From an uncultured Gammaproteobacteria bacterium (lineage in GTDB: Bacteria; Patescibacteriota; Patescibacteriia; JACQRZ01): a stretch of 64,000 bases of DNA. The position numbers and the translations under genes are program-made. The notes beneath the pieces are model-generated. The model was not told the origin of the DNA. It saw only the letters and a program-made list of their open reading frames with translations, and made no database searches. Shown here piece by piece: positions 1 to 21,772 of the stretch. The stretch is taken from positions 22,637-86,636 of the forward strand of contig CAZUKY010000002.1 in the NCBI GenBank assembly GCA_964621085.1, in the 5' to 3' direction. Within the stretch, counting starts at the first letter, position 1. Each line of letters opens with the position of its first letter.

Positions 1-872
1 TGACGCTGTTCCGCAATGCGCAGGTGATCGAGGATCCGAAGGACTGGGACGCGTTCCAGCGCGTGGTCAAGCAACTCACGCTCATCGACAACCAGCGCAA
101 CGACACGTCAGACATCATTCAGTCGGGAGCGGCATTCGGCGGCGCGGACAATGTGGAGCGGTCACCGGATATCATCGCGACGCTCATGATGCAAAGCGGC
201 GCAGTCATGACCGACGGCAATCAGGTGGCCTTCGATCGTCCGTCGCGCCAGTCGCAGAACCGGAGCGTGGTGCCTGCCGTCGAGGCGCTGCGCTTCTATA
301 CCGACTTTGCCTCGTACGCGCCGCGCAAGGAGCCGTATGCGTGGAACGTGGACCAGCCGAACAGCTTTCAGGCGTTTTTGCAAGGCAAGACGGCGATGTT
401 TTTCGGCTACTCGTACCACCAGACCGCTCTCCGCGCGCAGGCGCCGCAGCTGAACTTCGCGACCCGCCCGATTCCGCAGATCAATCCGCAGCGTCCCGTA
501 ACGTTCGCAAACTACTGGGTGGAAACCGTCTCGAAAAAGAGCGCAAACACGGATTACGCCTGGGACTTTCTCATGTTTGCCGCGGCAAACCAGGATCTGA
601 TGCGCGACTACACGAAAACATCCGGCCGTCCGACTGCCTTGCGGTCGCTTGTTGCCGAGCAGACGGCAACCGAGGATATGAACGCGTTTGCCTCGCAGCT
701 GATCATGGCGCGGAGCTGGTACCGCGGCAAAAAGCCGCTTGTGGCCGAGGAGGCGCTGCGTCGGATGATTGCCGATGCGCTGGACGCCAAGGGCGGTACC
801 GAGTCCGAGGAACGCAGCAAGCTGATGGCGATCGTTCGCAAGGCCCAGCAGGCGATTCAAGCAACCTATTGA
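1..872 (+). CDS. ABC transporter substrate-binding protein, 5'-truncated (C-terminal part only)
   Basis: Open frame runs from the window edge to the stop at 872. The translation (..ALRFYTDFASYAP..TAMFFGYSYHQ..WYRGKKPL..) resembles family-1 extracellular solute-binding proteins. No start codon lies inside the window. Confidence 0.45.
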   Translation, partial: TLFRNAQVIEDPKDWDAFQRVVKQLTLIDNQRNDTSDIIQSGAAFGGADNVERSPDIIATLMMQSGAVMTDGNQVAFDRPSRQSQNRSVVPAVEALRFYTDFASYAPRKEPYAWNVDQPNSFQAFLQGKTAMFFGYSYHQTALRAQAPQLNFATRPIPQINPQRPVTFANYWVETVSKKSANTDYAWDFLMFAAANQDLMRDYTKTSGRPTALRSLVAEQTATEDMNAFASQLIMARSWYRGKKPLVAEEALRRMIADALDAKGGTESEERSKLMAIVRKAQQAIQATY

Positions 873-876
873 GTAT

Positions 877-904
877 GACTCAGGAATCAGGACTCAGGAA
901 TCAG
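877..904. repeat. Short tandem repeat, 14-nt unit gactcaggaatcag x2 plus a partial copy
   Basis: Direct tandem copies read in the sequence between the SBP gene stop and pilin-like gene 1. Confidence 0.6.
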
Positions 905-943
905 GAATTGCGGCCATCATTCCCGCGCCGCGGCTGGCGGCGG

Positions 944-2311
944 ATGGGTATCATGGCAGCAGGTGTCTTTTGCATCTTTGCGGTTTTTATTTTGACCACC
1001 GCTCTTCCTGTTGCGGCGTACAAGTCGACAGGCATCATTCCGAGCGAGTGCTACGGCAGTGGCAACTACGGATGGGGCGGGATCATGCTTCTGATCGGCA
1101 ACATCATCAAGTTCGCACTCGGCTTGTCCGGCACGATCGCGCTTCTGATGTTTTTTGTGGGCGGCTACTTCTGGATCTTCGGTGGCGCCTCGGAGAGCAA
1201 TATCAAAAAAGGCAAAGAGTTCATGACGAATGCCGTCATTGGACTTTTGATCGTGTACGGCAGCTGGGTCGGCGTGAACTACTTCGTCGCAACACTTACG
1301 ACGCCGGAGGGTCAGCGCATTCAGGCTCAGGGCCTGCTCTTCGGTCAGCCGTGGAACCAGTTCGCCCGAGAAACCGAGGTCTGTATCGAGATCGCCAGAA
1401 GCTCAAGAGGCGGCGCATCGATACCGGAGATGAAGGCACCGAAGCCAGCGGCACCAGCGGCGATTCCTGGCAATACTATTAATCACCAGATCACAACCTG
1501 TAAAAAAGAAGATATAAAGCCTGACGCAAAGCCGGCAGGGTCGAACTGCCGATCAAGTGCGTGCAATTGTAAGTCGGGTAGGTGCGACGCAACAGGCGTA
1601 TGTATGCCTGAAGAGATGTCTGAGCAAGTTGCGGAGAATTCGAGGGGTAACTGTTGCTATTTTACGGAAAACTCAGACGGTTCATTTAAGCGAGAGAGTC
1701 CCCGAGTCCACAACGCACAGGGATGTCGAGATCTCATAGCTAGAAGTAGCGATGCTTCATATAAGCGAGATGTCTACTTTTGTGCGACAGAGGCAGGAGC
1801 CGATCCAAAAAATGAAGCAATATGCTTTCAGTATCCGGCTCTCGGGGCATCAAAAACTGATTTTAATTCCGCTTACTTCAAGCAAGGACAGTGTCCGAAA
1901 AGGATAAATATCCGGGCCGCCGGCCTGCAACAACTGCCACCACCGGAGGCGACCGGAGTATGTTGTTATAACTTGAAGAAACGAGAGACTTCAGGAGTTA
2001 GTACAATAACAACCTATTCAGCAGAAGGTGTTAAAAGGACCAGAAATAATTGTTCTAAAGCACGCGTCCAGTCAGCGTACCCATCTGCCACCACTGTAAT
2101 CAACGGCACAAAAACAGACTTGAAAGTAGAAGATACAAGATACTGCTATAAGCATACGAATCCGGAAAGTATTGCCACATCTGCGTGCGGTTCTCAGGTC
2201 GACGCAGGGACGGGTAGTTTTATAGAAGGAGCTCTTGAAGGGGAAGTGAGAGGTAAAAAATGGTATCCTATAGACCAAGAGGCACAAGGAATCACCTGTG
2301 AGCCCCGATAG
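944..2311 (+). CDS. VirB2/TrbC-like pilin-family protein, paralog 1, with ~310-aa Cys-rich C-terminal extension
   Basis: First in-frame ATG after the upstream stop gives a signal-peptide-like N-terminus (MGIMAAGVFCIFAVFILTTALPVAA). The conserved two-helix core is IIKFALGLSGTIALLMFFVGGYFWIFGG..KKGKEFMTNAVIGLLIVYGSW. About 30 Cys lie in the C-terminal region. The ORF track's earlier start at 341 overlaps the upstream gene and is rejected. Confidence 0.5.
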   Translation: MGIMAAGVFCIFAVFILTTALPVAAYKSTGIIPSECYGSGNYGWGGIMLLIGNIIKFALGLSGTIALLMFFVGGYFWIFGGASESNIKKGKEFMTNAVIGLLIVYGSWVGVNYFVATLTTPEGQRIQAQGLLFGQPWNQFARETEVCIEIARSSRGGASIPEMKAPKPAAPAAIPGNTINHQITTCKKEDIKPDAKPAGSNCRSSACNCKSGRCDATGVCMPEEMSEQVAENSRGNCCYFTENSDGSFKRESPRVHNAQGCRDLIARSSDASYKRDVYFCATEAGADPKNEAICFQYPALGASKTDFNSAYFKQGQCPKRINIRAAGLQQLPPPEATGVCCYNLKKRETSGVSTITTYSAEGVKRTRNNCSKARVQSAYPSATTVINGTKTDLKVEDTRYCYKHTNPESIATSACGSQVDAGTGSFIEGALEGEVRGKKWYPIDQEAQGITCEPR

Positions 2312-2318
2312 GTATTAT

Positions 2319-2669
2319 ATGAGCACATGGAAAGTTCTTATTGCAGTGATTTTTTTCTTGACACTTCTTTTCGCAAGTGTCGACCCAATCCTCGCTGCAA
2401 AGCTCGACGATCCGCTGAATATCGGCGAGAACAACAAGGGTATCCAGATCGTCGTCGGGCGGTTTCTCAAAGGACTGCTGGGGATATCGGGTGTTGTGGT
2501 GCTGCTGATGTTTGTCCTCGGGGGCTTTCAACTCCTTACCTCGGCTGGCGACAAGAAAAAATACCAGCAAGGAACAACGACGCTCTGGTGGGCCGCCGTC
2601 GGCATCCTGACGGTATTCGGCAGCTACGCGATCGTCGAGTTCCTCCTACGATCGTTTATTTCAGGGTGA
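2319..2669 (+). CDS. VirB2/TrbC-like pilin-family protein, paralog 2
   Basis: Signal-peptide-like N-terminus (MSTWKVLIAVIFFLTLLFASV). Core is LLGISGVVVLLMFVLGGFQLLTSAGDKKKYQQGTTTLWWAAVGILTVFGSYAIVEFL. The ATG at 2298 is an alternative start. Confidence 0.5.
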   Translation: MSTWKVLIAVIFFLTLLFASVDPILAAKLDDPLNIGENNKGIQIVVGRFLKGLLGISGVVVLLMFVLGGFQLLTSAGDKKKYQQGTTTLWWAAVGILTVFGSYAIVEFLLRSFISG

Positions 2670-2670
2670 T

Positions 2671-3381
2671 ATGAGCACGAGTCTGAAAAAAGTTTCATTG
2701 ATCATTGCGACAGCATGGCTGATCGGAGGCTTTTCGTTTGTGTCTGCAGAGGAAAGTCCGTCGGGTAGTGGCACATTTTTTTCATCGGACGGCAATTTGG
2801 AACCTTCCAACCCTTATGAAAACGATTACCAATCAGGAGTTCCTTCGACTTTGCAAAGCGCTCCGCTTTCCAATCCTTCACAGGTAGGACAGCTGAACTT
2901 TTGTCCTGGCGCCGGTACCACGCGGGCCGATATCACGACCGAGCAGGCATGCAACGCGTACTGCACGCATGAGAACAACTTTGAAAGGATGGAGGGCTTC
3001 GGTCTGAACAAATCGAAGTATGCCGACGTCGACTGCTGCTGCTGGAAGGGAAGCGTCACATCGCAACCCAAAAAAGTCACCTGCAGCGAGCTGCCGGATG
3101 GCACGTGCGAGCTTGGCAATACATTGAAAGGAGACGTCGCCAAGACGCCGCAGGAGTTTGCGGGGCGGATCATCAAGAACTTCTTGGGGATCGTCGGCGT
3201 GCTTGCACTCGTTATGTTTATGTGGGGCGGCGCGCAGATCATGATGTCTCGCTTCGGCGGCGACGATAAGACAAAATACCAGCAAGGCATCCAGACGCTT
3301 GTCGGCGCAGGCGCGGGCCTCGTTGTGATCTTTGGCAGCTACGCGCTCGTCGAGTTTCTCTTCTCCCGCCTCTTGTCGTAA
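2671..3381 (+). CDS. VirB2/TrbC-like pilin-family protein, paralog 3, with N-proximal Cys-rich insert
   Basis: Signal peptide MSTSLKKVSLIIATAWLIGGFSFVSA. Cys-rich segment (CPGAG..CNAYCTHEN..DCCCWKG..CSELPDGTCELG) precedes the core IVGVLALVMFMWGGAQIMMSRFGGDDKTKYQQGIQTLVGAGAGLVVIFGSYALVEFL. The ATG sits 1 nt after the upstream stop, consistent with translational coupling. Confidence 0.55.
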   Translation: MSTSLKKVSLIIATAWLIGGFSFVSAEESPSGSGTFFSSDGNLEPSNPYENDYQSGVPSTLQSAPLSNPSQVGQLNFCPGAGTTRADITTEQACNAYCTHENNFERMEGFGLNKSKYADVDCCCWKGSVTSQPKKVTCSELPDGTCELGNTLKGDVAKTPQEFAGRIIKNFLGIVGVLALVMFMWGGAQIMMSRFGGDDKTKYQQGIQTLVGAGAGLVVIFGSYALVEFLFSRLLS

Positions 3382-3384
3382 AAG

Positions 3385-3417
3385 TATCCCCATTCCGTCC
3401 GGAAAATGTGGTATACT
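3385..3417 (+). promoter_or_regulatory. Putative promoter: TATCCCCA, 16-nt spacer, extended -10 TGGTATACT
   Basis: Read directly: tatcccca(3385-3392), 16 nt, tggtatact(3409-3417), upstream of paralog 4. The same bipartite motif recurs at 5884 and 13113. Confidence 0.45.
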
Positions 3418-3468
3418 AACCATTACGTGAATAACTTTTTAAGCAGAGCCTTTGGCTCAATCGATCGT

Positions 3469-3855
3469 ATGGCACTTCGCAGGCTTTTCGCAGCCCTCTC
3501 TCTGGCCGGCATTCTCCTCGTTCCCGCAGGCGTGTTGGCGCAGGATCTCGACCCGTCGGATCCTGAAACGTTCCGGAAATACAATCCGCCCGTTTCTTCG
3601 AACGTCGAGACGGATATCGGCATGATCGCGAAAAACATCATCGGCGTCGTTATGGGTTTCCTTGGACTGTTCGCCGTGGTCATCATTATCATTGCGGGTT
3701 TCAAGTGGATGACGGCGGGCGGTGATGAGAAAAAGGTTGAAGAGGCGAAAAACCAACTCATCCAAGGCGCGATCGGTCTTGTCATCATCATCGCCTCCTG
3801 GAGCATCGCCTTTTTCGTCATCGAGCAGATCGCAAAGGTTGTCGGTGGGCAGTAG
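3469..3855 (+). CDS. VirB2/TrbC-like pilin-family protein, paralog 4
   Basis: Start chosen at MALRRLFAALSLAGILLVPAGVLAQD (signal peptide), downstream of the predicted promoter. Core is IIGVVMGFLGLFAVVIIIIAGFKWMTAGGDEKKVEEAKNQLIQGAIGLVIIIASWSIAFFVIEQI. Confidence 0.5.
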   Translation: MALRRLFAALSLAGILLVPAGVLAQDLDPSDPETFRKYNPPVSSNVETDIGMIAKNIIGVVMGFLGLFAVVIIIIAGFKWMTAGGDEKKVEEAKNQLIQGAIGLVIIIASWSIAFFVIEQIAKVVGGQ

Positions 3856-3874
3856 GGCATAAAACAACCTCCCC

Positions 3875-4324
3875 ATGCTTTTTCAAAAGACAGCATTCCT
3901 CTTTTTCGCGTGGAGCGCTGTCTTTTTGTTTTTCTTCGCCCCCATCAGCGGCACATTTTCGTTTGTTGATGCAGCCGAGTCTTCATCCGGGCCCGTGAAT
4001 TTGAATGTCTCCGGCACGGGCCTGGAAGACACCGGCAAGGCGGCTGGATTCAAAGAGGGGCAAAACCAATTGCCAGGGTATATCGGCACCGTCCTCAAGG
4101 CATTTTTTGGCGTGTTGGGTATTATCTTCCTCGCCTTGACGATCTATGGCGGCCTGCGGTGGATGCTCTCGCAGGGAAACGACACCGAAATCAAAGGCGC
4201 CCGCGATACGATTATTAGCGCGGTTATCGGCATTGCCATCGTTGCAGCATCCTATGCGATTACAGACTTTGTCATCGACCAGCTTGTAAAAAGCGGGGTA
4301 AAACAGGAGATTATCGGCGAGTGA
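3875..4324 (+). CDS. VirB2/TrbC-like pilin-family protein, paralog 5
   Basis: Hydrophobic N-terminus. Core is FFGVLGIIFLALTIYGGLRWMLSQGNDTEIKGARDTIISAVIGIAIVAASYAITDFVIDQL. Confidence 0.5.
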   Translation: MLFQKTAFLFFAWSAVFLFFFAPISGTFSFVDAAESSSGPVNLNVSGTGLEDTGKAAGFKEGQNQLPGYIGTVLKAFFGVLGIIFLALTIYGGLRWMLSQGNDTEIKGARDTIISAVIGIAIVAASYAITDFVIDQLVKSGVKQEIIGE

Positions 4325-4325
4325 T

Positions 4326-4724
4326 ATGCAAATCCTTTCTTCCATCATTTCTCGTGGAGCCGTGTTTGTGGGCGTATTCTTGCCGGCAACGGCAGTTTTT
4401 GCGGACAATCCTCCTGCAAACACAATAAAAGGAAATCTGAAAGAGAGTGCTAGTAGCGTATTTTCGCAAAGCGAGATTGCTGTTGTCATCGGCTCGATCG
4501 TCACTGCGCTTCTTGGAGTTCTGGGTGTCGTTTTTTTGGCGCTGTTGATCTATGGCGGCTTTCTGTACATGACTGACCTGGGCGATGAGAAGCAGGCGGC
4601 AACAGCAAAGAAACTGATCACGAATGCAACCATCGGGTTGGTTATCGTTGCAGTCTCGTTCGCGGTGACGAAGTTCGTGCTGGATAGCATCGGCGGGGCT
4701 GCCGGAGTAAGTGGTAGTTTTTAA
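4326..4724 (+). CDS. VirB2/TrbC-like pilin-family protein, paralog 6
   Basis: Signal peptide MQILSSIISRGAVFVGVFLPATAVFA. Core is LLGVLGVVFLALLIYGGFLYMTDLGDEKQAATAKKLITNATIGLVIVAVSFAVTKFVL. Start lies 2 nt after the upstream stop. Confidence 0.55.
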   Translation: MQILSSIISRGAVFVGVFLPATAVFADNPPANTIKGNLKESASSVFSQSEIAVVIGSIVTALLGVLGVVFLALLIYGGFLYMTDLGDEKQAATAKKLITNATIGLVIVAVSFAVTKFVLDSIGGAAGVSGSF

Positions 4725-4732
4725 GACCGTAT

Positions 4733-5317
4733 ATGGCAGAAATAAAGAAAAGAACAGTAACGCGTGCTCGTACGGGCCGCAGCGGTCAGGCAACACGAAA
4801 GCCGCGCGTCGCGGCTCGTCCTGTGCGTCGGAAGCGGCCCGCGATCTCGGCGGAGAATATTCCACAACTCGAAGCGGTCATCATAGAAGAGGGGAGAAGT
4901 GCAGAGCCTGGCCACATCATCTTTATGCAGCGCACAGGCGTCGTTCTCAACCGTGCGTTTAGCGTCACGACGGCGACAGTCCTTTCCCTTTCCCTTATGC
5001 TGGGTGGCATGACAACGTTCGCCGAAGGACTCAAATTTAGTGACGTGCAAAACAATGTCGGCGCCGAACTTGATCTGGCGACAGTCATCGCGAATATCAT
5101 CAACGTATTACTTGGTTTACTGGGTGTCGTTTTTGTGTTATTTGTTATCTATGGCGGGTTTCTCTGGATGACAGACAAGGGCGATGAGAAGCAGGCAGAG
5201 CACGCGAAAGCCGTCCTGAAAAACTCCACCATCGGCGTTGTCATCGTTGCGCTTGCCATGGCGATTTCCAACTTTGTGATCAGCACTCTGGCAACCAAGG
5301 TCTTTACAGGCGAGTAA
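4733..5317 (+). CDS. VirB2/TrbC-like pilin-family protein, paralog 7 (possible internal start at 4925)
   Basis: Core is LLGLLGVVFVLFVIYGGFLWMTDKGDEKQAEHAKAVLKNSTIGVVIVALAMAISNFVISTL. The first 64 codons are strongly basic and atypical. The Met at 4925 (MQRTGVVLNRAFSVTTATVLSLSLML) would give a signal-peptide-like start. Confidence 0.45.
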   Translation: MAEIKKRTVTRARTGRSGQATRKPRVAARPVRRKRPAISAENIPQLEAVIIEEGRSAEPGHIIFMQRTGVVLNRAFSVTTATVLSLSLMLGGMTTFAEGLKFSDVQNNVGAELDLATVIANIINVLLGLLGVVFVLFVIYGGFLWMTDKGDEKQAEHAKAVLKNSTIGVVIVALAMAISNFVISTLATKVFTGE

Positions 5318-5370
5318 GACTTTCGTACGCTTTTTTTCAAAATAGCTATAATCTCAATAATTTTGATCAT

Positions 5371-5811
5371 ATGAAAAAAGCTATTGCACTTTTCGGCGCA
5401 ACTGCTGCGATCTGCTCGCTTCTTGTGCCGGTTGCCGTTTTCGGTGCCGAAACGACTGTTTCTGGTTCGCTCGGCGGATCGACCGCCCCAACTGGAATAG
5501 GACAGGCGCTCCAGGGCGGCGCAACCGCTGAACTGGAGAAAGAGGACCTGTTTAAGACAAAGACCGACTTCATCACGATTGTTGCCAATATTATCAGTGT
5601 TATTTTGGGCTTCCTCGGACTGATCCTGGTCGCCTTCATCATCTATGCCGGCTTCCTCTGGATGACGGACAACGGCGACGAGAAACGCACCGAAACAGCA
5701 AAGAATATTCTCCGCAACTCGATTATCGGCCTCATCATCATCGTGGTAGCGTATGCGATTTCAAACTTTGTCGTGAGTACGCTGGCAACTGACGTCTTGA
5801 AGCAGCAGTAA
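5371..5811 (+). CDS. VirB2/TrbC-like pilin-family protein, paralog 8
   Basis: Signal peptide MKKAIALFGATAAICSLLVPVAVFGA. Core is ILGFLGLILVAFIIYAGFLWMTDNGDEKRTETAKNILRNSIIGLIIIVVAYAISNFVVSTL. A TATAAT -10 lies at 5347-5352 upstream and a terminator follows downstream. Confidence 0.55.
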   Translation: MKKAIALFGATAAICSLLVPVAVFGAETTVSGSLGGSTAPTGIGQALQGGATAELEKEDLFKTKTDFITIVANIISVILGFLGLILVAFIIYAGFLWMTDNGDEKRTETAKNILRNSIIGLIIIVVAYAISNFVVSTLATDVLKQQ

Positions 5812-5832
5812 GGAAGGCAAAAAGAAAGTAAA

Positions 5833-5861
5833 AGAGCGTCTGCGTACAGACGCTCTTTTTC
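5833..5861 (+). terminator. Rho-independent terminator closing the pilin-like array
   Basis: agagcgtctg / cgta / cagacgctct 10-bp stem followed by a T-run (ttttc). Confidence 0.7.
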
Positions 5862-5883
5862 AGTTGCGCCTTTTGCGCAAGGT

Positions 5884-5919: not shown

Positions 5920-5954
5920 TGAGCATATAGTGAGCGGCATTCGCCTGAACGGCG

Positions 5955-8900
5955 ATGCGGCATTTTCTCACATACCCCATGCCATCTCAATTTTCCAAAA
6001 GAGGATGGGCGCTCCTTACTGCAGTCGGAGCGATTTTTGCGTTGCTGACTGCAACCGCCTCGTCTACCTTCGCCCAACCCAAAAGCACCGAGGGTCCCAG
6101 CGCGACGCTCAATGAGCTGCTCGAGGATGAGACGCTCAAGAAGGTTATCAATCGCGGCGCGACCGATCAAAGCCGCAACGATGCGAGCGAGTACACGGGC
6201 CCGATCATCTTTGGGGGAAGCCTGGAGGTGCGCGGCGGGTTAAAGGGTGTACCAGACTCAGCCGATCCGAGTGATCCGAAGAAAAACAAGCTTTTGCTGC
6301 AAAAAGACGGCGGGAACGTCGGAATTGGAACGGCAACGCCGATAAACGCAGCGTTGGAAGTGGTTAAGGCGGGGGGCGTACAGGGACGGTTTGCGTACGA
6401 CGCCGATCGCTATATTGATATTATTGGGAATGTCGGCGTTAAGCTTCGCTCGGCAGACAGTCAGAACAACCCCCTTGAGATCGTAAAGGAGGGAAAGGGC
6501 GAGTTGGTTTTCAAGACCGGCCTCAATGGTGCAACAGCAGCCCGACTGATAATTCTTCAGGATGGCAACATTGGCATCGGGACGGCCGATCCGAAAAACA
6601 AACTGACGATTGGCTCAAGCAACAAGATTCAAGAGACGAAAGGGCTGGGCTTAGGCGCGGATCAGAATGTTGTCGAGTTGGTGCATTCAACGTACGGAAA
6701 CGGCTACGGATCAAAGCTCTACGGCCGCGATTTCGGTAATGGAGGGACGGGTCTTGCCATCGCTACGCGCGGAAATACGGGAACATGGACAGACGCCGTT
6801 ACGATCCGCGCAGATGACGCGACCGGCGGAAAGAACGGTAACGTCGGCATCGGCACGATTTCGCCGAATGCCGCACTTGCTATTTTTCGGAACGGCGTGA
6901 ATGCTGCGATCGACCTTGGATCGAAAGGCGAGAACGGCAACTATTGGTCGTTACGGCATGATGGCAGTGATGACAGACTCGCATTTTGGTTCAAAGATGG
7001 CGGCGATAAGTTGTCGCTTGGCAAAGACGGCGTGTTGTCTGGCAATGCATTCTCATCCCTTGCGAAGCAGTACGACTGGGTATCTTTGGGCGCGCGCACG
7101 ATGACGAGTCCCCAGCTTGCCGGCATTCCGCTCTGCGGCGCAAGCAACTTCAACAACCCTCTCGAACCGATTTGCTATACCGGCAGCGGCTCGAACTACG
7201 AGTTCAAGGAGCGCCAGGGCGTCGCCCATCCGAATACAAAACAGAAGGATGGCACGATCGCAACTCACGCACTTACTGCCGAGCGAAAGATCGCGATCGG
7301 TCTTCCTGGCTCGCAACAGAACGCTCTGTTGAACCCATCGTTGGAAATCAATCAGCCCTTCTACAGTCGCATCTTCCTGGGCGCGACGCAGTACCAACCA
7401 GAAGCCCAGCACGTGAAGATGGTCGTGGACGCCCGCGGCGACGGCCGCCTGGGCGGTGCGAACATGGGCCAGATCGGCACGATCTCGGGTCATCCCCTGA
7501 GCCTTTTGACAAATGACAGGGAACGCCTGCGCATCAGCGAATATGGCGGCGCAGAGATTTTTGCCTCGGAAAACAACACCAACGCTCTGGTCGTGAACGG
7601 CACGGTTCGCATCAAGAAGGTCGGTAACGAGCACGGCGGCTTGTATGTTGACGGCCCCGCTCAATTCCGCAACGGCATCACCTTCCCGCAGCTCGATGCA
7701 AATGGCAATCCAACCGCAACGAACCTCGCGTATATCAATCAGGCCGGCGACGCGATGTTTAGGAACCTACAGGTTAACGGCACCCTCACTGACAAGAGCG
7801 GCAATGAGTTTAAGCCCATCTGGTCTGGTGACGCAGCAAAGGCGTATCTTGCGAGCGGATTCGAAAACGCATCGGTCGGTATCGGTACGAATGATCCGAA
7901 GGCGAAGTTGCATGTGGAAGGTGATAATGGTCTTATGCTATCTCGAGCTGGCAACCAGACCTTGGGTGGAGGCCGTATAGGGCTTTTAGTCGGCTCCATC
8001 CTGAATGTTATTCAAAGCGCGGGTACTGGAAATTTGCATATATCCGGCGGCCTTGTCCCTGGTTCAGATGATCCTGTTCGCACTTCAGTAATTCTTCAGC
8101 CTACGGATGGTTATGTCGGTATAGGAACTATGCAACCGGGAGAAATACTCGCCTTGGGGGGCTCAAAGCCAGCGATTGATCTTGGCGCGGGTACTGAAAA
8201 CAGAGAGTTGAATGCAGGAAAAATCGCCTATCAGCGTTGGAGTGACGGTCTTGATATTGTTGGGGCGGGTGGCCCTAATGTAGCTGATCGAAAGATATAC
8301 TTTTATAATGAAGGAGGCGCTTTTTTTAACGGAGATGTGCAATTGAGCGCCACTAAAACATTACGGAGCTCAGGGCGAATGCATATCACGGGTGAAGAAA
8401 ACTTATATCTACTTAATAAGGGGGGAGTTGTAGTCAGTAATGCTTGGGGAGGAAACGGCAGTTTGACTGTAGATGGCAAAACCACTATCGGAAATGCAAG
8501 CACGAGAGGACAGGTGATGCTCGAGGTGCTTGGGAAAGCAGAGATTCATGGAGACGTGAACCTCAAACTCAGTAGCGCGAACAATCCGCTTGCGAAAAAG
8601 GGCTCGTATCTTGCCTACGATCCAAAGGTACAAGGTTTCGATATTGCAGAAAAATTTTCAACGGACTCCGATGTTGAGCCGGGGGATGTACTTGTTGCTG
8701 GTAAGAAGTCAAACACATTGACTCTATCCTCGAGACAATATCAAAAAGGCGCGATTGGCGTTGTTTCCACATCACCCGCTATCGTTTTTGAAGGAGGTGA
8801 GATAAAACTTGCCGCAGAAGCGCGGTTTTCGAAAGGGAAAAATCCCCCAGTAGCACTTTCAGGGCGTGTTCCAGTAAAGGTTACACTCGAAAATGGCCCG

Positions 8901-9131
8901 ATTCATCCTGGTGACTACCTCACGGCTTCATCAAGAAAGGGGTATGCGATGAAGGCAACCGAACCCGGCCCCATAATCGGCATCGCGCTTGAGTCCTATA
9001 CTTCGAGAACGTCAACAGAAAAGATCATGATGTTCGTGAATACTTCGGAAGGAAATACAGAACTGGTCACCCAGGAGTTATTGAAGCTTCGCAAGGAACT
9101 GGACGAGGTGAAGAAAAAGCTTCGAAAATAA
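5955..9131 (+). CDS. Phage tail-fibre-like secreted protein with C-terminal intramolecular-chaperone-like domain
   Basis: Signal peptide (..MPSQFSKRGWALLTAVGAIFALLTATASSTFAQP). The alternative start at 5979 is in frame. Five copies of the x-V-G-I-G-T-x-x-P-x-x-K/A-L motif (GNVGIGTATP, GNIGIGTADP, GNVGIGTISP, ASVGIGTNDP, GYVGIGTMQP) typical of tail-fibre-domain proteins. The C-terminus (PVALSGRVPVKV..GPIHPGDYLTASSRKGYAMKATEPGPIIGIALESY) resembles peptidase G2 / S74-type auto-processing chaperone domains. Terminal coiled coil is ELLKLRKELDEVKKKLRK. Confidence 0.55.
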   Translation: MRHFLTYPMPSQFSKRGWALLTAVGAIFALLTATASSTFAQPKSTEGPSATLNELLEDETLKKVINRGATDQSRNDASEYTGPIIFGGSLEVRGGLKGVPDSADPSDPKKNKLLLQKDGGNVGIGTATPINAALEVVKAGGVQGRFAYDADRYIDIIGNVGVKLRSADSQNNPLEIVKEGKGELVFKTGLNGATAARLIILQDGNIGIGTADPKNKLTIGSSNKIQETKGLGLGADQNVVELVHSTYGNGYGSKLYGRDFGNGGTGLAIATRGNTGTWTDAVTIRADDATGGKNGNVGIGTISPNAALAIFRNGVNAAIDLGSKGENGNYWSLRHDGSDDRLAFWFKDGGDKLSLGKDGVLSGNAFSSLAKQYDWVSLGARTMTSPQLAGIPLCGASNFNNPLEPICYTGSGSNYEFKERQGVAHPNTKQKDGTIATHALTAERKIAIGLPGSQQNALLNPSLEINQPFYSRIFLGATQYQPEAQHVKMVVDARGDGRLGGANMGQIGTISGHPLSLLTNDRERLRISEYGGAEIFASENNTNALVVNGTVRIKKVGNEHGGLYVDGPAQFRNGITFPQLDANGNPTATNLAYINQAGDAMFRNLQVNGTLTDKSGNEFKPIWSGDAAKAYLASGFENASVGIGTNDPKAKLHVEGDNGLMLSRAGNQTLGGGRIGLLVGSILNVIQSAGTGNLHISGGLVPGSDDPVRTSVILQPTDGYVGIGTMQPGEILALGGSKPAIDLGAGTENRELNAGKIAYQRWSDGLDIVGAGGPNVADRKIYFYNEGGAFFNGDVQLSATKTLRSSGRMHITGEENLYLLNKGGVVVSNAWGGNGSLTVDGKTTIGNASTRGQVMLEVLGKAEIHGDVNLKLSSANNPLAKKGSYLAYDPKVQGFDIAEKFSTDSDVEPGDVLVAGKKSNTLTLSSRQYQKGAIGVVSTSPAIVFEGGEIKLAAEARFSKGKNPPVALSGRVPVKVTLENGPIHPGDYLTASSRKGYAMKATEPGPIIGIALESYTSRTSTEKIMMFVNTSEGNTELVTQELLKLRKELDEVKKKLRK

Positions 9132-9232
9132 CAACCACTCATCTAATCCGCAGCATAAGGCGAAGCGATGACGTGATCCGTATATGAGCAAACGGAATCA
9201 GCGCTCTCGCTTCGCCTCTTCAGTAGAAAGGC

Positions 9233-12200
9233 ATGAAACCGTCAGCGCAAAATAATATATTCGCCAAGGGATTCCTCGGAATCCTTTTTGGCGTTTTAGC
9301 TACTGGTATTATCGGTTTCTTTCTCAACGTGGACCCAATTCAGGCCGCTTGGTGTATTACAAAAGGGGAAAAAACGGACTGCATCCCGAACTTCAATTAT
9401 ACAAGCGGCACGCCCGTCAATCAAACCTATCAAATCGAAGGAAAGACAGCTGATCCGAATAAGAAGTGGACGATAACGAACCAGCGTTCCGGCTATTGCA
9501 ATAATAATGTCTGTGTCAACGATCTTGGTCTGCCGAAATTTGAGATGGTTTCCCGAGGAGATGATAACGATACGGATGATAAGATCCAAATACGCCTGAG
9601 GGTCCAGGGCAACACCGGAAGCTATTGGTATGTACGAAAAAATAGTGGATACAGTAACGATGACGGGTACCCGAATACCGGAGATCCCCAAGAAGATCGA
9701 GGTCTTTCAAGGATCCAATACGATGGTATTCAAGGATTAAGAGGCGGGAATTACGCGCAAAATCTTTGTCCCGGGGATAATGGCAGTAGCTGGGACGACA
9801 AATTCGATGTCACTCAGGCAGGCGGATATTTTACTGCGGAAGCACCAGGACCGCGTACGTGCTATGACTCAAAGCTCGTCACTGTAACACATAAGGCGCC
9901 GCAGCAAGTTACAGACCCGAAACATCAGGACACATGGCGAGTGTATGTGTATAGCCCCCAGGATGGGATGATGCACTATACAGATCACACAGACGCTGGT
10001 ACTTATCCGAATGGGTGGAATGCCTATTGGAATAACTGCTGGAAGGGATGGCCATTAAATTGTGAAGGTCGCTGGGAGCAGCCACGCTATCCGGAGTGCG
10101 GCTGCGGCAAAAATGACCCCACTGAAAAGCTCTGTATAAGTTACGGCGTGGCCGGCTTACAATCAAACAATAACTGCTACGACTTCTTTAAAAAGCACAT
10201 CGGCTTTGGGACGAAAACAGAAAATTCTAAAACAGTGACAGAGATGAGGTACCGCGAGGTTACCACGGTGCCCCGATTTAGTCTCGCTACGCTCAACAAT
10301 AAAACTGCATATGCTCCCCATAGAGAAGGTGCGGTATGGCCTGACAATACCTACTTACTCTACTATGATACAAAGAATTTAAATCGAACGGACGGGGCAA
10401 AAAATAAGGTAAAGGCCGTTCAGAACGAGCAGCCGGTTTTTTCCGATCTTAACAAGTGCATTTTTGACCGTAAATTTCTTGAAGTAACACATCATGGTTC
10501 GTACACTGATTATGTTGTTCAAGCGGAAGGACTTCTCGGCAACAGGTTCATCGGATGGCTTTTGTTAAGCCGCGATGAACAAAATGCTATAAAACAAAAG
10601 ATTCTTACGCATGATAAAAGGTTCTACGACAGATCTATAAAAGACGCGCAAAATGAGGAACAAGTAGGGCTGGTACTCATGAGTTTTAAAGCCACCGATG
10701 CATTCAAAAATGACGTCATCAATTCCAAGTTACTAAAAGAGAAGGAGTTTAACGTCATATTCAAGGGAGTATCGCAAACCGTCCAGGCGGCTACCGAAGT
10801 CCCCAAAGAAAAAGATGAGGGCATTGCATGTCGCGCACAACTGCCCTCAGAGTTCGGCATGACCAGTACATATACGTACTTTACTGGTCCAGCTTCAATA
10901 CCGCCTGTTGAGATTCGTTCGTTTCGGGCGACAGCGGTCGGTCCGGATAGTGACTTTGTCGGCGAGACAACACAAGAGCTTACAAGTATTGGAAGCGGCG
11001 CTAATGTTCTCCCCGACCCAACTAATCGATTTTCGTCTGCGCGTGCTGACCTGAGTGCTGGCGCGGGCGAAGTATTGGATCTGCAGGCATACCAGGATAC
11101 CGTCAATCTCAGACTGGAGTGGCAAACTCCCTTTGCCGGCCGGGTACGGATTTTTCAAAAAGATGAGCGGCATGCGACGGCGACGGATCTCAGTCAGTTG
11201 GCGTGTTTGGGTAGATGGGGGGACATCATTGACAGTAATGACCCATGCCCGGCAAGGGGAGAAGTAACATCTGTACGGGAGCTTACGGTTGAGGGACTTC
11301 AGAGCAATAAGAACTATACGTTTTATATCGTCGTCGAAAATAAGCGCGGCGACAGCACCGCGCTACAGCCGACTCAGTGGGCTACAGCCGCCAGACTCGA
11401 CGTTACTGTCCGGCCGGCACCGATTGTCGTCACGAGCGCAACCGCGAAATACGTGAAAGGAAAGGAGAACTGCAAGAGTAATGCATTACCGGGCCAGACC
11501 AATACTCCGACCGAGTGCGCGGAAATTACCTGGAAAGTCGATGGTAGACCGACAGAGATAGTTCTTAAAGCGCCGAAAGGATGGAATAGGACAGTATGGA
11601 CAGACCATACATTCGCTTCGCACTCCTACACGTCAAACGGTGATTTTGACAGATATTTTCCTATTCATACAAGCGAAATCAATCGTTATCGCTCAAATTT
11701 TATCCTCATTGCAAAACGCGGCGATATTACATCGGCCGAGTTTCCTTTTGAGCTTCGAGGCGTGCCGCGCGATCCTATGACAATCGCGGCAGAAGGATGG
11801 AAGGATGGCAACAATGTTCGTGACAAGTCTCTTTTTGAGGCGATTCTCAATACCGACTGCGATGAGTGGTGGCCAGGTTTAGATTTGATATGCAGAGGAA
11901 CGACATTTAGCAGTATTTTTAATATCGCTCGTGAGTCAATATCGTCATCGCTCGCCGGTGCACTGGCAGTAGTGACTGGAGGTGCCGGCGCACTCCTTAA
12001 GCCGATTGTCGATTTTGTTCTAAGGGTTGTTGAGCCGATTGCCTTTGGATTGGTTGGTATGATAGGAAATTTAGTGCAGGCGAACAACGAGAATCTTATT
12101 GACTGGAAGAAGGACATTAATTGGCAGCCATTTCTCGGTTCCTTCGGACTGAGTTTCGCAGTCAATTCATTTACCGGCGTGCTTCAGGCGATCTTTGGAA

Positions 12201-13069
12201 AATGTGCGGCAGCGCCCCTCGTTGGTGCAATTCACCAGGTTATTGATCTTGTCGGCACGCTCCTCAGAATCGCTGGAATTAATTTAGGCTGTCCGGATGG
12301 TGAAGAAAATAGCTGCGAAATGGGAGCAGATATGGGGAAGACAATGGGAATAATTGCCGGTGAAACAGTTTATTATGCAGTAACCGGCGATAACTCTTGG
12401 AAGCCAGAGGTCTGCCCTGGTGAAAAACCTCCGGAAGAGGAAGAAGATCCGTGTACTCCGAAGCCAGGCGAACCGTTCGATTACGCGAGATCGCAAGAGT
12501 GTTTTGGAGAGAAGTATCTGCCCCAACGCTATGGATGCAACGAAGAAAATAAGTGCGTGCCCGCTGAAGCCGGTACCTTTGCTGATCCGTTATGCAGTAA
12601 CACATGCGATGTGTCAAAAATTGTCGAGAAGAAGGTAACGGAAATAGTAAAAGAAGACACAAAATCAATATTTGACTGCTCGGGTACTGTGGATGGAACC
12701 GAAGTCGGTCAAGGTTATGGCGGTGAGCGATATGCTAACGAATACCAGTATAGAACGCGCTCAAAGAAAGCGGTTGCCGATGCGCTTATGTCAGCATATT
12801 ATGTTGCGACGTGTGGTAAATTTTGCCTGAGAAAGGACGCGGCTCTTAGTTGTTCTGAGGATCTCTACAACAATAATAAAAACAATTTCGATTCAATATT
12901 TAATACCGCAGATTCGTATATTGATGACAAAAATAGACGGAATCTAAGTACCAAGGTGCATGATAATCTGTTCCGTGATACGTTTGATGGTCTCATGAAA
13001 GAGGCAGCTTCATGCGGCATTAAAGATGTTACTAGGTTTATTCCCGTCCCCTGCGCATTCGCACAATAA
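9233..13069 (+). CDS. Large Cys-rich membrane-anchored hypothetical protein (1278 aa)
   Basis: N-terminal TM helix (FAKGFLGILFGVLATGIIGFFLNV). Many Cys throughout. Internal Gly/Ala-rich hydrophobic segment (AGALAVVTGGAGALLKPIVDFV..FGLVGMIGNL). Visibly AT-richer than flanking genes. No family recognised. Confidence 0.5.
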   Translation: MKPSAQNNIFAKGFLGILFGVLATGIIGFFLNVDPIQAAWCITKGEKTDCIPNFNYTSGTPVNQTYQIEGKTADPNKKWTITNQRSGYCNNNVCVNDLGLPKFEMVSRGDDNDTDDKIQIRLRVQGNTGSYWYVRKNSGYSNDDGYPNTGDPQEDRGLSRIQYDGIQGLRGGNYAQNLCPGDNGSSWDDKFDVTQAGGYFTAEAPGPRTCYDSKLVTVTHKAPQQVTDPKHQDTWRVYVYSPQDGMMHYTDHTDAGTYPNGWNAYWNNCWKGWPLNCEGRWEQPRYPECGCGKNDPTEKLCISYGVAGLQSNNNCYDFFKKHIGFGTKTENSKTVTEMRYREVTTVPRFSLATLNNKTAYAPHREGAVWPDNTYLLYYDTKNLNRTDGAKNKVKAVQNEQPVFSDLNKCIFDRKFLEVTHHGSYTDYVVQAEGLLGNRFIGWLLLSRDEQNAIKQKILTHDKRFYDRSIKDAQNEEQVGLVLMSFKATDAFKNDVINSKLLKEKEFNVIFKGVSQTVQAATEVPKEKDEGIACRAQLPSEFGMTSTYTYFTGPASIPPVEIRSFRATAVGPDSDFVGETTQELTSIGSGANVLPDPTNRFSSARADLSAGAGEVLDLQAYQDTVNLRLEWQTPFAGRVRIFQKDERHATATDLSQLACLGRWGDIIDSNDPCPARGEVTSVRELTVEGLQSNKNYTFYIVVENKRGDSTALQPTQWATAARLDVTVRPAPIVVTSATAKYVKGKENCKSNALPGQTNTPTECAEITWKVDGRPTEIVLKAPKGWNRTVWTDHTFASHSYTSNGDFDRYFPIHTSEINRYRSNFILIAKRGDITSAEFPFELRGVPRDPMTIAAEGWKDGNNVRDKSLFEAILNTDCDEWWPGLDLICRGTTFSSIFNIARESISSSLAGALAVVTGGAGALLKPIVDFVLRVVEPIAFGLVGMIGNLVQANNENLIDWKKDINWQPFLGSFGLSFAVNSFTGVLQAIFGKCAAAPLVGAIHQVIDLVGTLLRIAGINLGCPDGEENSCEMGADMGKTMGIIAGETVYYAVTGDNSWKPEVCPGEKPPEEEEDPCTPKPGEPFDYARSQECFGEKYLPQRYGCNEENKCVPAEAGTFADPLCSNTCDVSKIVEKKVTEIVKEDTKSIFDCSGTVDGTEVGQGYGGERYANEYQYRTRSKKAVADALMSAYYVATCGKFCLRKDAALSCSEDLYNNNKNNFDSIFNTADSYIDDKNRRNLSTKVHDNLFRDTFDGLMKEAASCGIKDVTRFIPVPCAFAQ

Positions 13070-13112
13070 AAAGAGGAGCTCTAGGGCGGAGCGCTGATGC
13101 GGTGAATGAACC

Positions 13113-13148
13113 TATCCCCACAACAAACAGAACAGGGAGTGGTATGAT
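13113..13148 (+). promoter_or_regulatory. Putative promoter: TATCCCCA, 19-nt spacer, TGGTATGAT
   Basis: tatcccca(13113-13120), 19 nt, tggtatgat(13140-13148). Lies about 70 nt upstream of the giant protein gene. Confidence 0.45.
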
Positions 13149-13217
13149 AGAAGTGCCGTTCTTATTTGAACGGCAGGGCGTTTACCGCCATTTTAGGCAA
13201 CGTATATCAAGAGGCGC

Positions 13218-16200
13218 GTGCCCGTATTTTTGAGACATCATCGGCTGGTTTTCGCTGCCGGGGTTTTGGCCCTTGGCGGGTTTTTTGGCGTTCCCGTACT
13301 TGCGAATGCTCTTAGCGTCATGGTGGCAACGCCATTTCGAATCAGTACGCCTATCAACGGAACGGTGGTCACACTGCCGGAAGCGAAAGTGACGGTTCCA
13401 ATTACTGTTGTGTCGCCAGGCGACCAATATGCTGGCGTTACGGTTACCGCAGAGATCCGTTCGGCAAGCGGTGATGTGCGGACGCTTCCGATGAGTGTTT
13501 CATCGACCGGTGCAGCCGGAACGACATTTTCTGCGCAGTGGACTGCCACGACCGTCGGGAGCTACCTGATCACTGCGCGCGCAACGCAGTCCGGGTATAA
13601 TGACCGGGTCAGTGCGCCGGTTCGCGTGAATATCATCTCTCCGTCCGGAAACGCATCAGGGCGCATTTCCGGCGCTTTTACGCAGAGTGCCGCCAAGCAA
13701 GCCGGAAAATTCGACGTCATTCCTGGAACAGATGCAGGTGCAATTCCTGGTGACTACCGCCGGCCGCGCATTGGGCCCGTTCTGCCGCCGATCTTTGAGT
13801 TCAGTATTTCGGAACCGCTTGAACAGAAAGTGATGATGGATGTCAGTCTTTACGGCGCCGAAGCGCGAAAAGCCGCGGCAGAGAACTCGCGATTCCTGCT
13901 TGATTGGAGTGCAAATACTATTGCTCGCGAGCTGTCTGCCGGTGCACAGGAACGCATTCCGATCTATCGGAATGGCGCTGCTATTGTGCTCTCTGTTGGG
14001 CAAGTCAACCAAAATGCATACATCGATCTCTACTCCGCGCCGTACTATGACGGAGTTGCCGATGATATCGAGGATCCGATAAAATCAGTTCCCGGTTTTC
14101 AGAAACTGAAGGCCTGTCCGAATGCAGTCTCGTGCATTTTTTCTTTGGGGACAGCCAAGAACGGCCGGCATATCGTAGTCGCTCGTGTCAGTGCGAATGG
14201 CATCTCGCGCTTCTCATATCGTCTTGTCGAGGTGCGCGGGCAGAATGCGGCGCCGATTGTTGCAATGAGTCTTCTGAGCGATCAGAAACCATTTCTCCTG
14301 CCGCAAAAATTGAACATCCGAGTAGATGTGGCAGATGCTGACTCGGATCGCAATGCCGCTGGCAGCCCCATCGAGCGAGTGATTATTTTTGCGGGAGACA
14401 AAAAGATTGCCGAACTCGAAAAGCCAACACAAAATATTAATACGCGCACGGAAAAATTCAATTCTCTTTTTAAAGATCTCGATTTTTCGACGTACGCCAC
14501 ACTGCAGACGTATGCGGCCGAGTGGAAGGTTGAAAGCGGCCGCCATGACCTACGCGCGGTCGCAATCGACACCGAAGGCATGCCGTCAGATCCCTTTGTT
14601 ATTAAGGATTTCATTGCAACCGAGCGGCCGAAAGTTTCTGATCTTATCGTCGTCGGAAAGGAGCGTCCGTCGGATAGCGGTCCGTGGATCGTGCAAGAAG
14701 GAGAGGAGTTCACGTTGCAAGCAAAAGCGACAGACGACGGACGCATCGTGTCGATGGCATTTACGAGCGAACAAAAGGCGGCAGGCGGCGGATCCGCCTC
14801 GCCAGTTTCCGGTGAAGACAATCTGTATCGTCTCACCGTAAAGGATCGCGCCGCCGGCGCTGAATACGTATACGCCGGCATTGCACAGGATAACGAGGGG
14901 GTTACCAACGATCCTCTGCCGCGGATGACCGTCAAGATGAATAAGAAGCCGGATATCCGAGATCTGTCCCGTGATGCCGAGGAGTATCAGCCGAATACAA
15001 AAGTAACGCTTGCCGCACTTGCAAAGGACATCGATAGCGCGCTTTCATCCGTCGAGCTCGTTGATGCAAAGACAGGAGCCCGCATCGATTTCAAAGAAAA
15101 TATCGGCGCTTCAAAAAATACCGATTACGCCTACCGCTTCGAGTGGGTGCCGCCATGGAATGAAGATGCGAAAAATGTCGATCAGAGCGCGATGCACTCG
15201 CTTAAGCTCATCGTCCGGGATGCGGACGGCGGCGTTCGCGAGGCGACCTTCCCGACGGTGACCGTTCGCAACCGTGCGCCGTCCGTCACCAAATTTTCCG
15301 CCACAAAGGCGGTGTATCAGGATACCGAGCCCGTCGTCGTATCACTTGAGGCAATCGATAACGACAGTGGCATGAACGGCGTCACATTTGTCTTGAAAAA
15401 CACCGCCGGAACACTCAGTAAAAATTTCATTCTCAATGCCCCGACGCGGCCGGTGTCAGGCATTGATGTACGACGAGGCGGGGTGTATGAGGCCGAGATA
15501 AAAAATCTTGCGCCGGACTCCTACATCATAACGGCGATCGCTTCGGATATCGCTTCGCCCGCAAAAGCATCACCCGAACAGGTGGTGAGTGTCCGTGTCA
15601 ACGCGCCGCCGACGGCAGAAGGCCTGACGGTTTCCACTCCGCTCGTCCAACCGAACGTGCCCGCGACTTTTTCGATTATCGCGCGGGACAGCGACAGCGA
15701 CGTGAAAAGCGACAGTCGGATCGGGTCGGTGATGCTGCTGCGCGATGGTGTGGAAATCGCCGTCATGCGTCTGCGCGCTGGCAGTGGCGACACCTATGAA
15801 GCGAGCTGGACGCCGACCCTGTGGTCGCCAGACATTCCCGATCAGGCACAGCAGTATATCTCGAAAGGTTTTTCCGTACGGATCGAGGATACGGATAGGC
15901 GGCGCATCGAAAAAAAGACAGACATAACAGTAACCGTCAAGAATGATCCGCCTGCGCTTGTGCCGGATGGCAAGCAGCTGACCGAGCGGAGCGTCTATCA
16001 GAAGGGCGAGACCGTGACACTCTCGGCCGCTGTCAGTGATGCGGATAGCGGCGTTGCGCGCCTTCAGTTTTTCGCGAATGGGACGGCGATTCATACCATC
16101 GACAATCCTTCCCAAAAAGTTTCGTTCCAGTGGAAGCCGACTCCCGGAAGTTATGCCCTGACGGCAACGGCGACCGATCGCGCGAAACCGGTCAAGACGG

Positions 16201-21761: not shown

Positions 21762-21772
21762 GGAGTGAATAT

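Follow-up and report, generated by a model that had tools for sequence, protein, structure and literature searches.

A sizeable part of the diversity of uncultured bacteria belongs to the Patescibacteria, which live attached to host cells. Among type IV secretion systems (T4SSs) only theirs, which has VirB2-like pilins, is to our knowledge indispensable to the cell that carries it. Here we describe a locus on contig CAZUKY010000002.1, within a 64-kb stretch of DNA that was analysed as a whole (hereafter the window), in which eight tandem genes encode proteins built around a common two-helix hairpin. We are confident that these genes, numbered paralogues 1 to 8 from 5′ to 3′, belong to the PF18895-type pilin family and to a kind of array that is already known. 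Together with the gene for an orphan solute-binding protein (SBP) lipoprotein they probably form an operon whose products would be used, via a T4SS, as a filament or stub for contact with the host.

Arrays of this kind were catalogued by Quinonero-Coronel et al (2025; PMC12102498), who surveyed 3,035 genomes of Patescibacteria using PF04956 and PF18895. Defining an array as at least two PF04956/PF18895 genes in tandem or one non-pilin gene apart, they reported 441 VirB2-like arrays of 2–11 tandem genes in 383 assemblies, with a mean within-array identity of ~25% and the highest frequency in Microgenomatia and Saccharimonadia (PMC12102498). VirB4 was found in 2,417 assemblies (~80% of the 3,035), and a pilin gene lay near virB4 in just 1,135 of the 1,948 assemblies carrying both (PMC12102498). 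The same survey reported VirB2 homologues to be missing from MPF_FATA-type monoderm T4SSs, raised variation for host range as a possible role of the Patescibacterial pilin arrays, and cited the tandem VirB2 paralogues of Bartonella and Anaplasma phagocytophilum, which have been read as surface variation (PMC12102498). In Southlakia epibionticum, a series of pilin genes inside the T4SS cluster is essential by transposon sequencing (Tn-seq; Wang et al, 2023; PMC10633639). A 2025 review considers the Patescibacterial systems unique among monoderms in their potential for a conjugative-type pilus, which it treats as still a possibility only (PMC12857230).

The window locus falls within the published definition of an array, with eight successive PF18895 genes separated by gaps of 1–53 nt, and because such arrays have already been published it is a further, well-preserved example of a described kind. 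It shares with the Patescibacterial VirB2-like arrays the families PF18895 and PF04956, a tandem arrangement on one strand, a copy number (eight) within the range of 2–11, low identity (~25%), the phylum, and the lack of a relaxase or coupling protein nearby. Among those arrays are an essential one of six genes, located in the T4SS cluster SEML1_0006-0019 of S. epibionticum ML1, and the Sec-secreted array of Nanosynbacter lyticus TM7x. Unlike the published arrays, however, the window array lies outside any T4SS cluster (at least 79 kb are free of one), is led by an orphan SBP_bac_1 lipoprotein gene, and carries cysteine (Cys)-rich modules in its early genes, one of them C-terminal to the hairpin. 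Its relatives are of ABY1 type, whereas the published arrays were reported to be commonest in Microgenomatia and Saccharimonadia. The locus adds no new principle; it is a clean and complete example from outside the cultured Saccharibacteria.

Assignment of the tandem genes to a pilin family

Eight open reading frames (ORFs) follow one another on the + strand at positions 875–5811 of the window. They agree with the genes called on locus L001, a public version of this contig from Logan SRR5011273. As an earlier note on this DNA had described, the eight proteins share a two-helix core; it spans ~70 aa and consists of two hydrophobic helices joined by a short polar GDEK-like loop, and four of its glycines are invariant. 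Hydropathy analysis likewise gave two hydrophobic segments per mature protein. An AlphaFold model of paralogue 4 is a confident hairpin, with helices at residues 50–81 and 87–125 (predicted local distance difference test score 90–95).

Pfam PF18895 (T4SS_pilin) was the top match for all eight proteins, with E-values from 3.5e-5 to 4.9e-12, far beyond chance. Paralogues 2–8 passed the gathering score of 26.6 bits (31.0, 36.2, 46.2, 32.4, 36.9, 41.9 and 37.7 bits, respectively). Paralogue 1 fell narrowly below this cut-off (24.2 bits, E 3.5e-5), aligned to profile positions 7–71, and was recovered by a family hidden Markov model (HMM) built from the eight cores. NCBIfam NF045849, a pilin-like family of Mycoplasma integrative and conjugative elements (ICEs), was the best match for seven of the eight proteins, being the sole one for six of them and the better of two for paralogue 4. 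Its scores were 46.2 for paralogue 8, 46.1 for paralogue 4, 39.4 for paralogue 6, 37.2 for paralogue 7, 36.5 for paralogue 5, 28.6 for paralogue 2 and 18.7 for paralogue 3, against a cut-off of 40, and the alignments spanned 69–76 of the 80 profile positions. PF04956 (TrbC/VirB2) came second for paralogues 2, 3 and 4 at sub-threshold levels (E 6.5e-5 to 1.6e-3, with paralogue 4 at 6.5e-5 and paralogue 2 at 2.6e-4), and was third-ranked and non-significant for paralogue 1 (E 0.18). The matches of all eight proteins to PF18895 and of seven to NF045849 support the earlier assignment to a VirB2/TrbC-like pilin family, as does the hairpin model. The family is very large: 96,950 cluster representatives were found at E ≤ 1e-3 in a library of 1.84 billion.

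A signal-peptide-like hydrophobic stretch at each of the eight N-termini leads into a small-x-small site, often with an acidic residue coming next. For paralogues 1–8 the sites read VAA↓Y, ILA↓A, VSA↓E, VLA↓Q, VDA↓A, VFA↓D, TFA↓E and VFG↓A, respectively, and an alignment of 69 family members gave the consensus P-x-x-A-x-A at the predicted cleavage position. This is consistent with the N-terminal signal peptides that had been proposed previously. An alternative identity as type IV pilus pilins was rejected, as none of the eight proteins has the prepilin-peptidase motif G↓F/M-T-L-I-E within its first 80 residues.

The described systems outside the Patescibacteria resemble the window array to different degrees. 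The Mycoplasma ICE proteins of NF045849 (the Mbov_0395/MMCAP2_0565 family) likewise come from a monoderm host. However, that model is typed as an 'equivalog' for an ICE-encoded protein, whereas the window genes have no ICE, relaxase or VirB4 nearby, sit among housekeeping genes, and form eight copies with added ectodomains. VirB2 of Agrobacterium and TrbC of RP4 (PF04956) resemble the window proteins in their long signal peptide and in a pair of hydrophobic helices joined by a short polar loop; they differ in that the window host is a monoderm, no virB operon adjoins the array, the loop is longer and acidic/basic (GDEK...AK), and nothing points to head-to-tail cyclization or a TraF-type peptidase in the window system. 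On the Rhizobium and Komagataeibacter plasmids that we examined, virB2 lies between virB1 and virB3-virB4. Bartonella and Anaplasma also carry several divergent pilin genes side by side, but theirs are part of diderm MPF_T systems, within virB operons or adjacent to them, whereas the window subtypes are old, ordered and partly conserved across genomes. The ATP synthase c-subunit shares the two-helix hairpin and glycine-rich helix packing; with no sequence relation, no signal peptide and other neighbours, it is a look-alike in fold only.

Two of the proteins, paralogues 4 and 8, exceed the cut-off of the Mycoplasma ICE model, in contrast to the published view of MPF_FATA systems as lacking VirB2. 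Because these paralogues pass that cut-off, the Patescibacterial pilins may have arrived with the monoderm machinery, and co-option from diderm systems would not be required.

Organization of the eight genes and the upstream lipoprotein gene

The array is preceded by a gene for a sugar-type extracellular SBP of the SBP_bac_1 family (Pfam E 2.9e-9), the 3′ part of which occupies positions 24–872 (+ strand); it is cut by the window edge. The whole gene, at 6754–8202 of L001, encodes 482 aa, and the full-length protein opens with a lipoprotein-like signal, MNKFWKKKALICVTLFSVVAMTTGFSC. Its stop codon lies 2 nt 5′ of an ATG at position 875, the start called for paralogue 1 in L001. The earlier note had the unit begin at 944; in view of this junction the transcription unit very probably starts one gene further upstream, with the SBP_bac_1 gene as the first gene of the operon. 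The gaps 5′ of genes 1–8 measure 2, 7, 1, 24, 19, 1, 8 and 53 nt, and because the intergenic gaps are only 1–53 nt the packing is operon-like, in line with the tight spacing already remarked upon. The operon is closed by an intrinsic-terminator-like hairpin at 5830–5860 (+ strand), 19 nt past the stop codon of paralogue 8, with a 13-bp perfect stem, a 4-nt loop and a U5 tract. It was found by a pattern scan, and the surrounding region (5812–5880) has a predicted RNA folding energy of −26.7 kcal/mol (z = −3.5).

All eight genes lie on the + strand. Paralogue 1 (875–2311, or from 944) encodes 478 aa, or 455 aa from the downstream start. Its layout departs from the claim that all eight proteins end in the core: a signal peptide is followed by the pilin hairpin (aa 62–147 counted from 875, with the core at aa 49–114 counted from 944) and then by ~330–340 Cys-rich residues. 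This extension contains 19 of the 21 Cys in the protein and matched only itself in a search among 5.8 billion proteins. Paralogue 2 (2319–2669, with an alternative GTG at 2298; 116 aa, as in the second gene call of L001) has a K-Y-Q-Q-G loop and belongs to an 'early' subtype, with 47% identity to paralogue 3. Paralogue 3 (2671–3381; 236 aa), the exact protein of which is recorded on a Logan contig, carries 8 Cys, and a Cys-rich module of ~125 aa separates its signal peptide from a C-terminal hairpin. The Cys-rich nature previously ascribed to paralogues 1 and 3 agrees with these counts of 21 and 8 residues.

The later genes are plainer. Paralogue 4 (3406–3855, or from 3469) encodes 149 aa as called. 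The codon-position guanine-plus-cytosine (GC) content of 3406–3468 is atypical, a hint that the start is at 3469, and an ATG there (128 aa, MALRRLF...) is the more likely one. Paralogue 5 (3875–4324) encodes 149 aa, and paralogue 6 (4326–4724; 132 aa) starts 1 nt after its stop codon. Paralogue 7 (4733–5317, or from 4925) is 194 aa as called; its first 64 aa (4733–4924) are very basic and rich in Arg, Lys and Pro, and stand ahead of the signal-peptide-like stretch. This N-terminus is either a long leader, as in F TraA or RP4 TrbC, or lies upstream of the true start at 4925 (MQRTGVV...), a choice on which codon-position GC was uninformative. Paralogue 8 (5371–5811) encodes 146 aa.

Within the extension of paralogue 1, a module beginning with C-C-Y apparently occurs twice at aa ~250–450 (NCCYF...C...YFC...C and VCCYN...C...YCY...C), and a C-C-C-W motif in paralogue 3 is related to it. 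The GC content of paralogue 1 at the three codon positions is 0.50/0.51/0.53, compared with ~0.6/0.4/0.7 in other genes of the window.

Related loci, host lineage and the conserved gene order

Relatives were collected by a pattern scan covering one genome per species, which yielded 321 confirmed core relatives, and the best 80 loci were used for the comparison between loci. The patterns were derived from a four-sequence alignment, the alignment of the eight cores being too divergent for this purpose, and the six-frame ORFs of the related loci were scanned with the HMM built from the eight cores. The best identity to relatives was at most 60%. The loci come mostly from Uhr-, Falkow-, Magasanik-, Veblen- and Komeilibacteria or from metagenome-assembled genomes (MAGs) designated 'Patescibacteria group', with a minority under other automatic MAG labels such as 'uncultured Gammaproteobacteria'. 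The window itself is ordinary chromosome, with genes for IleRS, RuvA, FemAB, RpoB/C, FtsK, RecA, EF-P, SSB, S6, IF2, IF3, ClpP and RNase Y and for three tRNAs, and its RecA shares 68% identity with the RecA of a metagenome contig bearing the same type of array. The relatives, the shared SBP-array synteny and RecA all point to a Patescibacterial host. Judged from these sequence comparisons, the host is most likely a Patescibacterium (candidate phyla radiation) of the ABY1 class, similar to Uhrbacteria.

Thirty-nine of the 80 loci are arrays of 4–14 small genes, like that of the window. Of the 26 arrays with at least 1.5 kb of upstream sequence, 24 had an SBP_bac_1 gene 5′ of them in the same orientation, and in 18 of those loci it was within 45 nt of the array. 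NTP_transferase, SBP_bac_1 and 6–13 T4SS_pilin genes, in that order, were found in independent Pfam-annotated gene calls on three more metagenome contigs. No ABC permease or ATPase was a recurrent neighbour family of the related arrays, and for this reason we regard the SBP as an orphan. Among solved structures, maltose/sugar-binding proteins come closest to it, with weak E-values (1e-6 to 1e-4).

The internal order of the array is also partly conserved. Paralogue 1 corresponds to the first (large) gene of Uhrbacteria arrays, paralogue 4 to the third or fourth and paralogue 8 to the last. For paralogue 8 the best matches were the last array gene in 21 of 38 loci, and the last gene is the best conserved one in related arrays. 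Paralogues 2 and 3 form the separate 'early' subtype. In related arrays the first two or three genes typically encode Cys-rich extensions, on either the N- or the C-terminal side of the hairpin.

Divergence among the paralogues

The earlier note had viewed paralogues 6–8 as close recent duplicates, which does not fit their divergence. Protein identity is 62% between paralogues 7 and 8, 51% between 6 and 7, and 39% between 6 and 8, and the DNA repeats that they share are short and at most 79% identical. No near-identical DNA repeats were present in the array: the best direct repeats were 113 nt at 73% and 97 nt at 72%, and the highest DNA identity, 79%, was confined to 24 nt. Recent duplication or gene conversion was accordingly rejected. 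Core identities among the paralogues range from 20 to 62%, which points to old duplications, and all eight copies are full-length, each with its own signal peptide. The array does not fit recombination-driven antigenic-variation cassettes, since the repeats are weak and the copies are all complete. We infer that the eight genes are old, ordered subtypes rather than interchangeable recent copies.

The N-terminal segments outside the core behave differently. They are unalignable between paralogues, and most family members are predicted to expose only 20–50 residues to the outside. With paralogues this divergent and no close strain among the relatives, the contrast was drawn between core and N-terminal identity across genomes. 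Where cores were 75–90% identical, mature N-terminal segments were only ~31% identical, and this difference indicates that the exposed N-terminal part evolves fast.

Giant and multi-hairpin proteins with the same hairpin

The other 39 of the 80 loci contain a conserved pair of giant genes encoding proteins of ~650–900 aa and 1,500–3,470 aa. Both are predicted to have a signal peptide, a PF18895-like hairpin at aa 40–130 and then a huge Cys-containing extracellular part. Examples are L004 (9698–17502), L025 (6109–17960), L048 (7154–15562) and L052 (7932–19829), and recurrent neighbours of the pair are HisRS, signal peptidase S26, RelA/SpoT, S21 and RuvB. In the Uhrbacteria MAG Kiruna3_bin-2585, an array (L016) and a giant pair (L052) occur together.

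In addition, the library proteins P0029–P0041 (e.g. P0030, P0033 and P0038) contain 2–17 tandem copies of the hairpin in single predicted proteins. P0030 (552 aa, six copies) and P0033 (386 aa, four copies) each appear to consist of one signal peptide followed by concatenated hairpins with linkers of ~20–30 aa. They may be genuine polytopic 'poly-pilins'; alternatively, the gene calls may read through a stop codon that is recoded in the lineages concerned. Concatenated copies also exist for the ATP synthase c-subunit in some lineages.

Models for the function of the array

We propose that the proteins encoded by the array are exported and assembled as follows. Each would be exported by Sec, its signal peptide being cut at an A-x-A-type site as the sequences suggest. 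The mature protein would then insert into the membrane as a helical hairpin, for which sequence and structural model agree in predicting a cytoplasmic GDEK-like loop and N- and C-termini on the outside. Because both termini would lie outside, the variable N-terminal segments (20–125 aa) and the Cys-rich modules would be extracellular. By homology, and by the genetics of Southlakia, the hairpins would be extracted and polymerized by a VirB4-based monoderm-type T4SS encoded elsewhere in the genome, giving a surface filament or stub for host-cell contact. The plain late genes (4–8) may supply the bulk subunits, and the decorated early genes (1–3) minor, tip or adhesive subunits. While use of the operon by a T4SS in host contact is probable overall, the polymerization of the hairpins into a pilus is put forward tentatively, by homology, and falls just short of an even chance.

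Several observations weigh against this proposal. VirB4, VirB6 and a coupling protein are absent from the 64-kb window as well as from 7.3 kb upstream and ~8 kb downstream of it (~79 kb in all), and neither the virB3/virB4/virB6 operon context of a VirB2-type pilin nor the ICE context of an NF045849 protein was found in the window and its flanks. The statement that no secretion machinery is encoded nearby thus stands for the window, and the same absence is typical of related loci: among the first 25 listed of 63 large-neighbour families, no T4SS family was recurrent within 10 kb of the 39 related arrays, although isolated cases may have escaped notice. The link to VirB2 is also weak at the sequence level. 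The PF04956 gathering score of 27.9 was not reached, the highest score being 23.5 bits (paralogue 4), followed by 21.6, 19.1 and 12.4, values that suggest a relationship from below the threshold. A comparison by hhalign of 69 family members with two VirB2 sequences gave E 0.002 and a probability of 14%, and it reproduced the L-G-x-x-G ... W-M register of the earlier note, in which the VirB2 fragment quoted is genuine. A PDB profile search with the eight cores was not significant (VirB2, 8exh, E 4.6), nor was the best Foldseek match, the ATP synthase c-subunit 1a91 (TM-score 0.63 on the target, E 1.3); because a helical hairpin matches thousands of structures, fold searches are uninformative on the relationship to VirB2. 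Giant proteins of 650–3,470 aa and concatemers of 2–17 copies are awkward for a simple homopolymeric filament, and according to reviews no pilus of this family has ever been observed (PMC12857230).

Some of these observations would be accommodated if the hairpin were a membrane anchor that displays variable, often disulfide-rich ectodomains, so that the array would encode a family of adhesins or receptors co-expressed with the SBP lipoprotein. The same hairpin stands at aa 40–130 of the paired giant proteins in 39 related loci, paralogue 1 has the same architecture on a small scale, single proteins can contain 2–17 concatenated hairpins, T4SS genes are lacking near the window array and 39 related arrays, and in fold the top matches were to generic membrane hairpins, the ATP synthase c-subunit among them. 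However, the family is related to TrbC/VirB2 and to a conjugal-transfer protein of Mycoplasma ICEs, and a Saccharibacteria array lies inside a T4SS cluster and is essential (PMC10633639). Moreover, most members expose 20–50 residues, which is very little for display, and the core, with its four invariant glycines and GDEK-like loop, is far more conserved than a plain anchor needs. We consider an anchoring role, the main alternative to a filament, possible but unlikely.

In a further model, the hairpin could have become, in the ABY1 class, the building block of a dedicated surface organelle that is genetically uncoupled from the T4SS cluster, with a fixed layout of SBP, Cys-rich subunits and plain subunits, and could serve also as the base of the paired giant surface proteins. 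This seems improbable to us. If filament, SBP and giant proteins did jointly capture or channel host-derived molecules, they would make up a nutrient-scavenging appendage of a new type rather than a secretion pilus.

The array might instead be a repertoire for antigenic or receptor variation, made up of interchangeable, recently diversified and possibly recombining genes for a major subunit. That the exposed segments cannot be aligned between paralogues and diverge much faster than the core across genomes would fit such a repertoire, which is also favoured in published discussion (PMC12102498). But repeats long or similar enough to drive conversion are missing (the best being 113 nt at 73%), the eight genes are complete, tightly packed and served by a single terminator, their subtypes and order are partly conserved across candidate phyla, and core identities of 20–62% place the duplications far back. 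The reading in the earlier note, its idea of surface variation included, agrees with the published interpretation of such arrays, while its antigenic part is weakened by the absent repeats and the partly conserved order; as an explanation of this locus, a variation repertoire appears quite doubtful. Finally, that the hairpin proteins are membrane partners of the SBP in an unconventional uptake device unrelated to type IV secretion is very improbable, for although an SBP_bac_1 gene in the same orientation immediately precedes 24 of 26 arrays (18 within 45 nt) and is an orphan without a recurrent ABC permease or ATPase, two-helix proteins are unlike the SBP-dependent permeases (ABC, TRAP, TTT; the sole such match, DctQ, is insignificant at E 0.02), arrays of other Patescibacterial classes adjoin virB4 (PMC12102498, PMC10633639), and the homology of the family is to T4SS pilins.

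Returning to the host-contact filament, comparison of the 80 loci provides three testable regularities: an operon led by an SBP gene, ordered subunit types with early Cys-rich modules, and reuse of the hairpin as the N-terminal part of giant proteins. They favour a heteromeric structure that faces the host over interchangeable antigenic variants, and suggest which partners deserve first experimental attention. In the literature searched we found no description of the SBP-then-pilin operon, the partly collinear subtypes, the Cys-rich modules of early genes or the giant hairpin-headed pairs; of these, the ordered operon with its leading SBP gene and the giant proteins headed by a hairpin most deserve to be pursued.

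Flanking genes

Directly 5′ of the SBP gene, at 5951–6757 of L001 and thus just outside the window, lies a gene for a presenilin-type signal peptide peptidase (PF06550), which could dispose of or process the signal peptides cut from so many proteins. The gene does not recur beside related arrays, where an NTP_transferase gene occupies that position.

Right after the terminator, positions 5955–24016 (+ strand) contain four genes for very large secreted proteins. The first encodes 1058 aa without a Pfam hit, the second 1278 aa with 36 Cys, the third 2847 aa with Big_7, Cadherin-like and other Ig-type repeats, and the fourth 756 aa with a Cys-rich C-terminus. A pilin domain in these four proteins was ruled out, the family HMM giving no match. 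Together, the array and the four large secreted-protein genes make up a 23-kb block of surface-protein genes.

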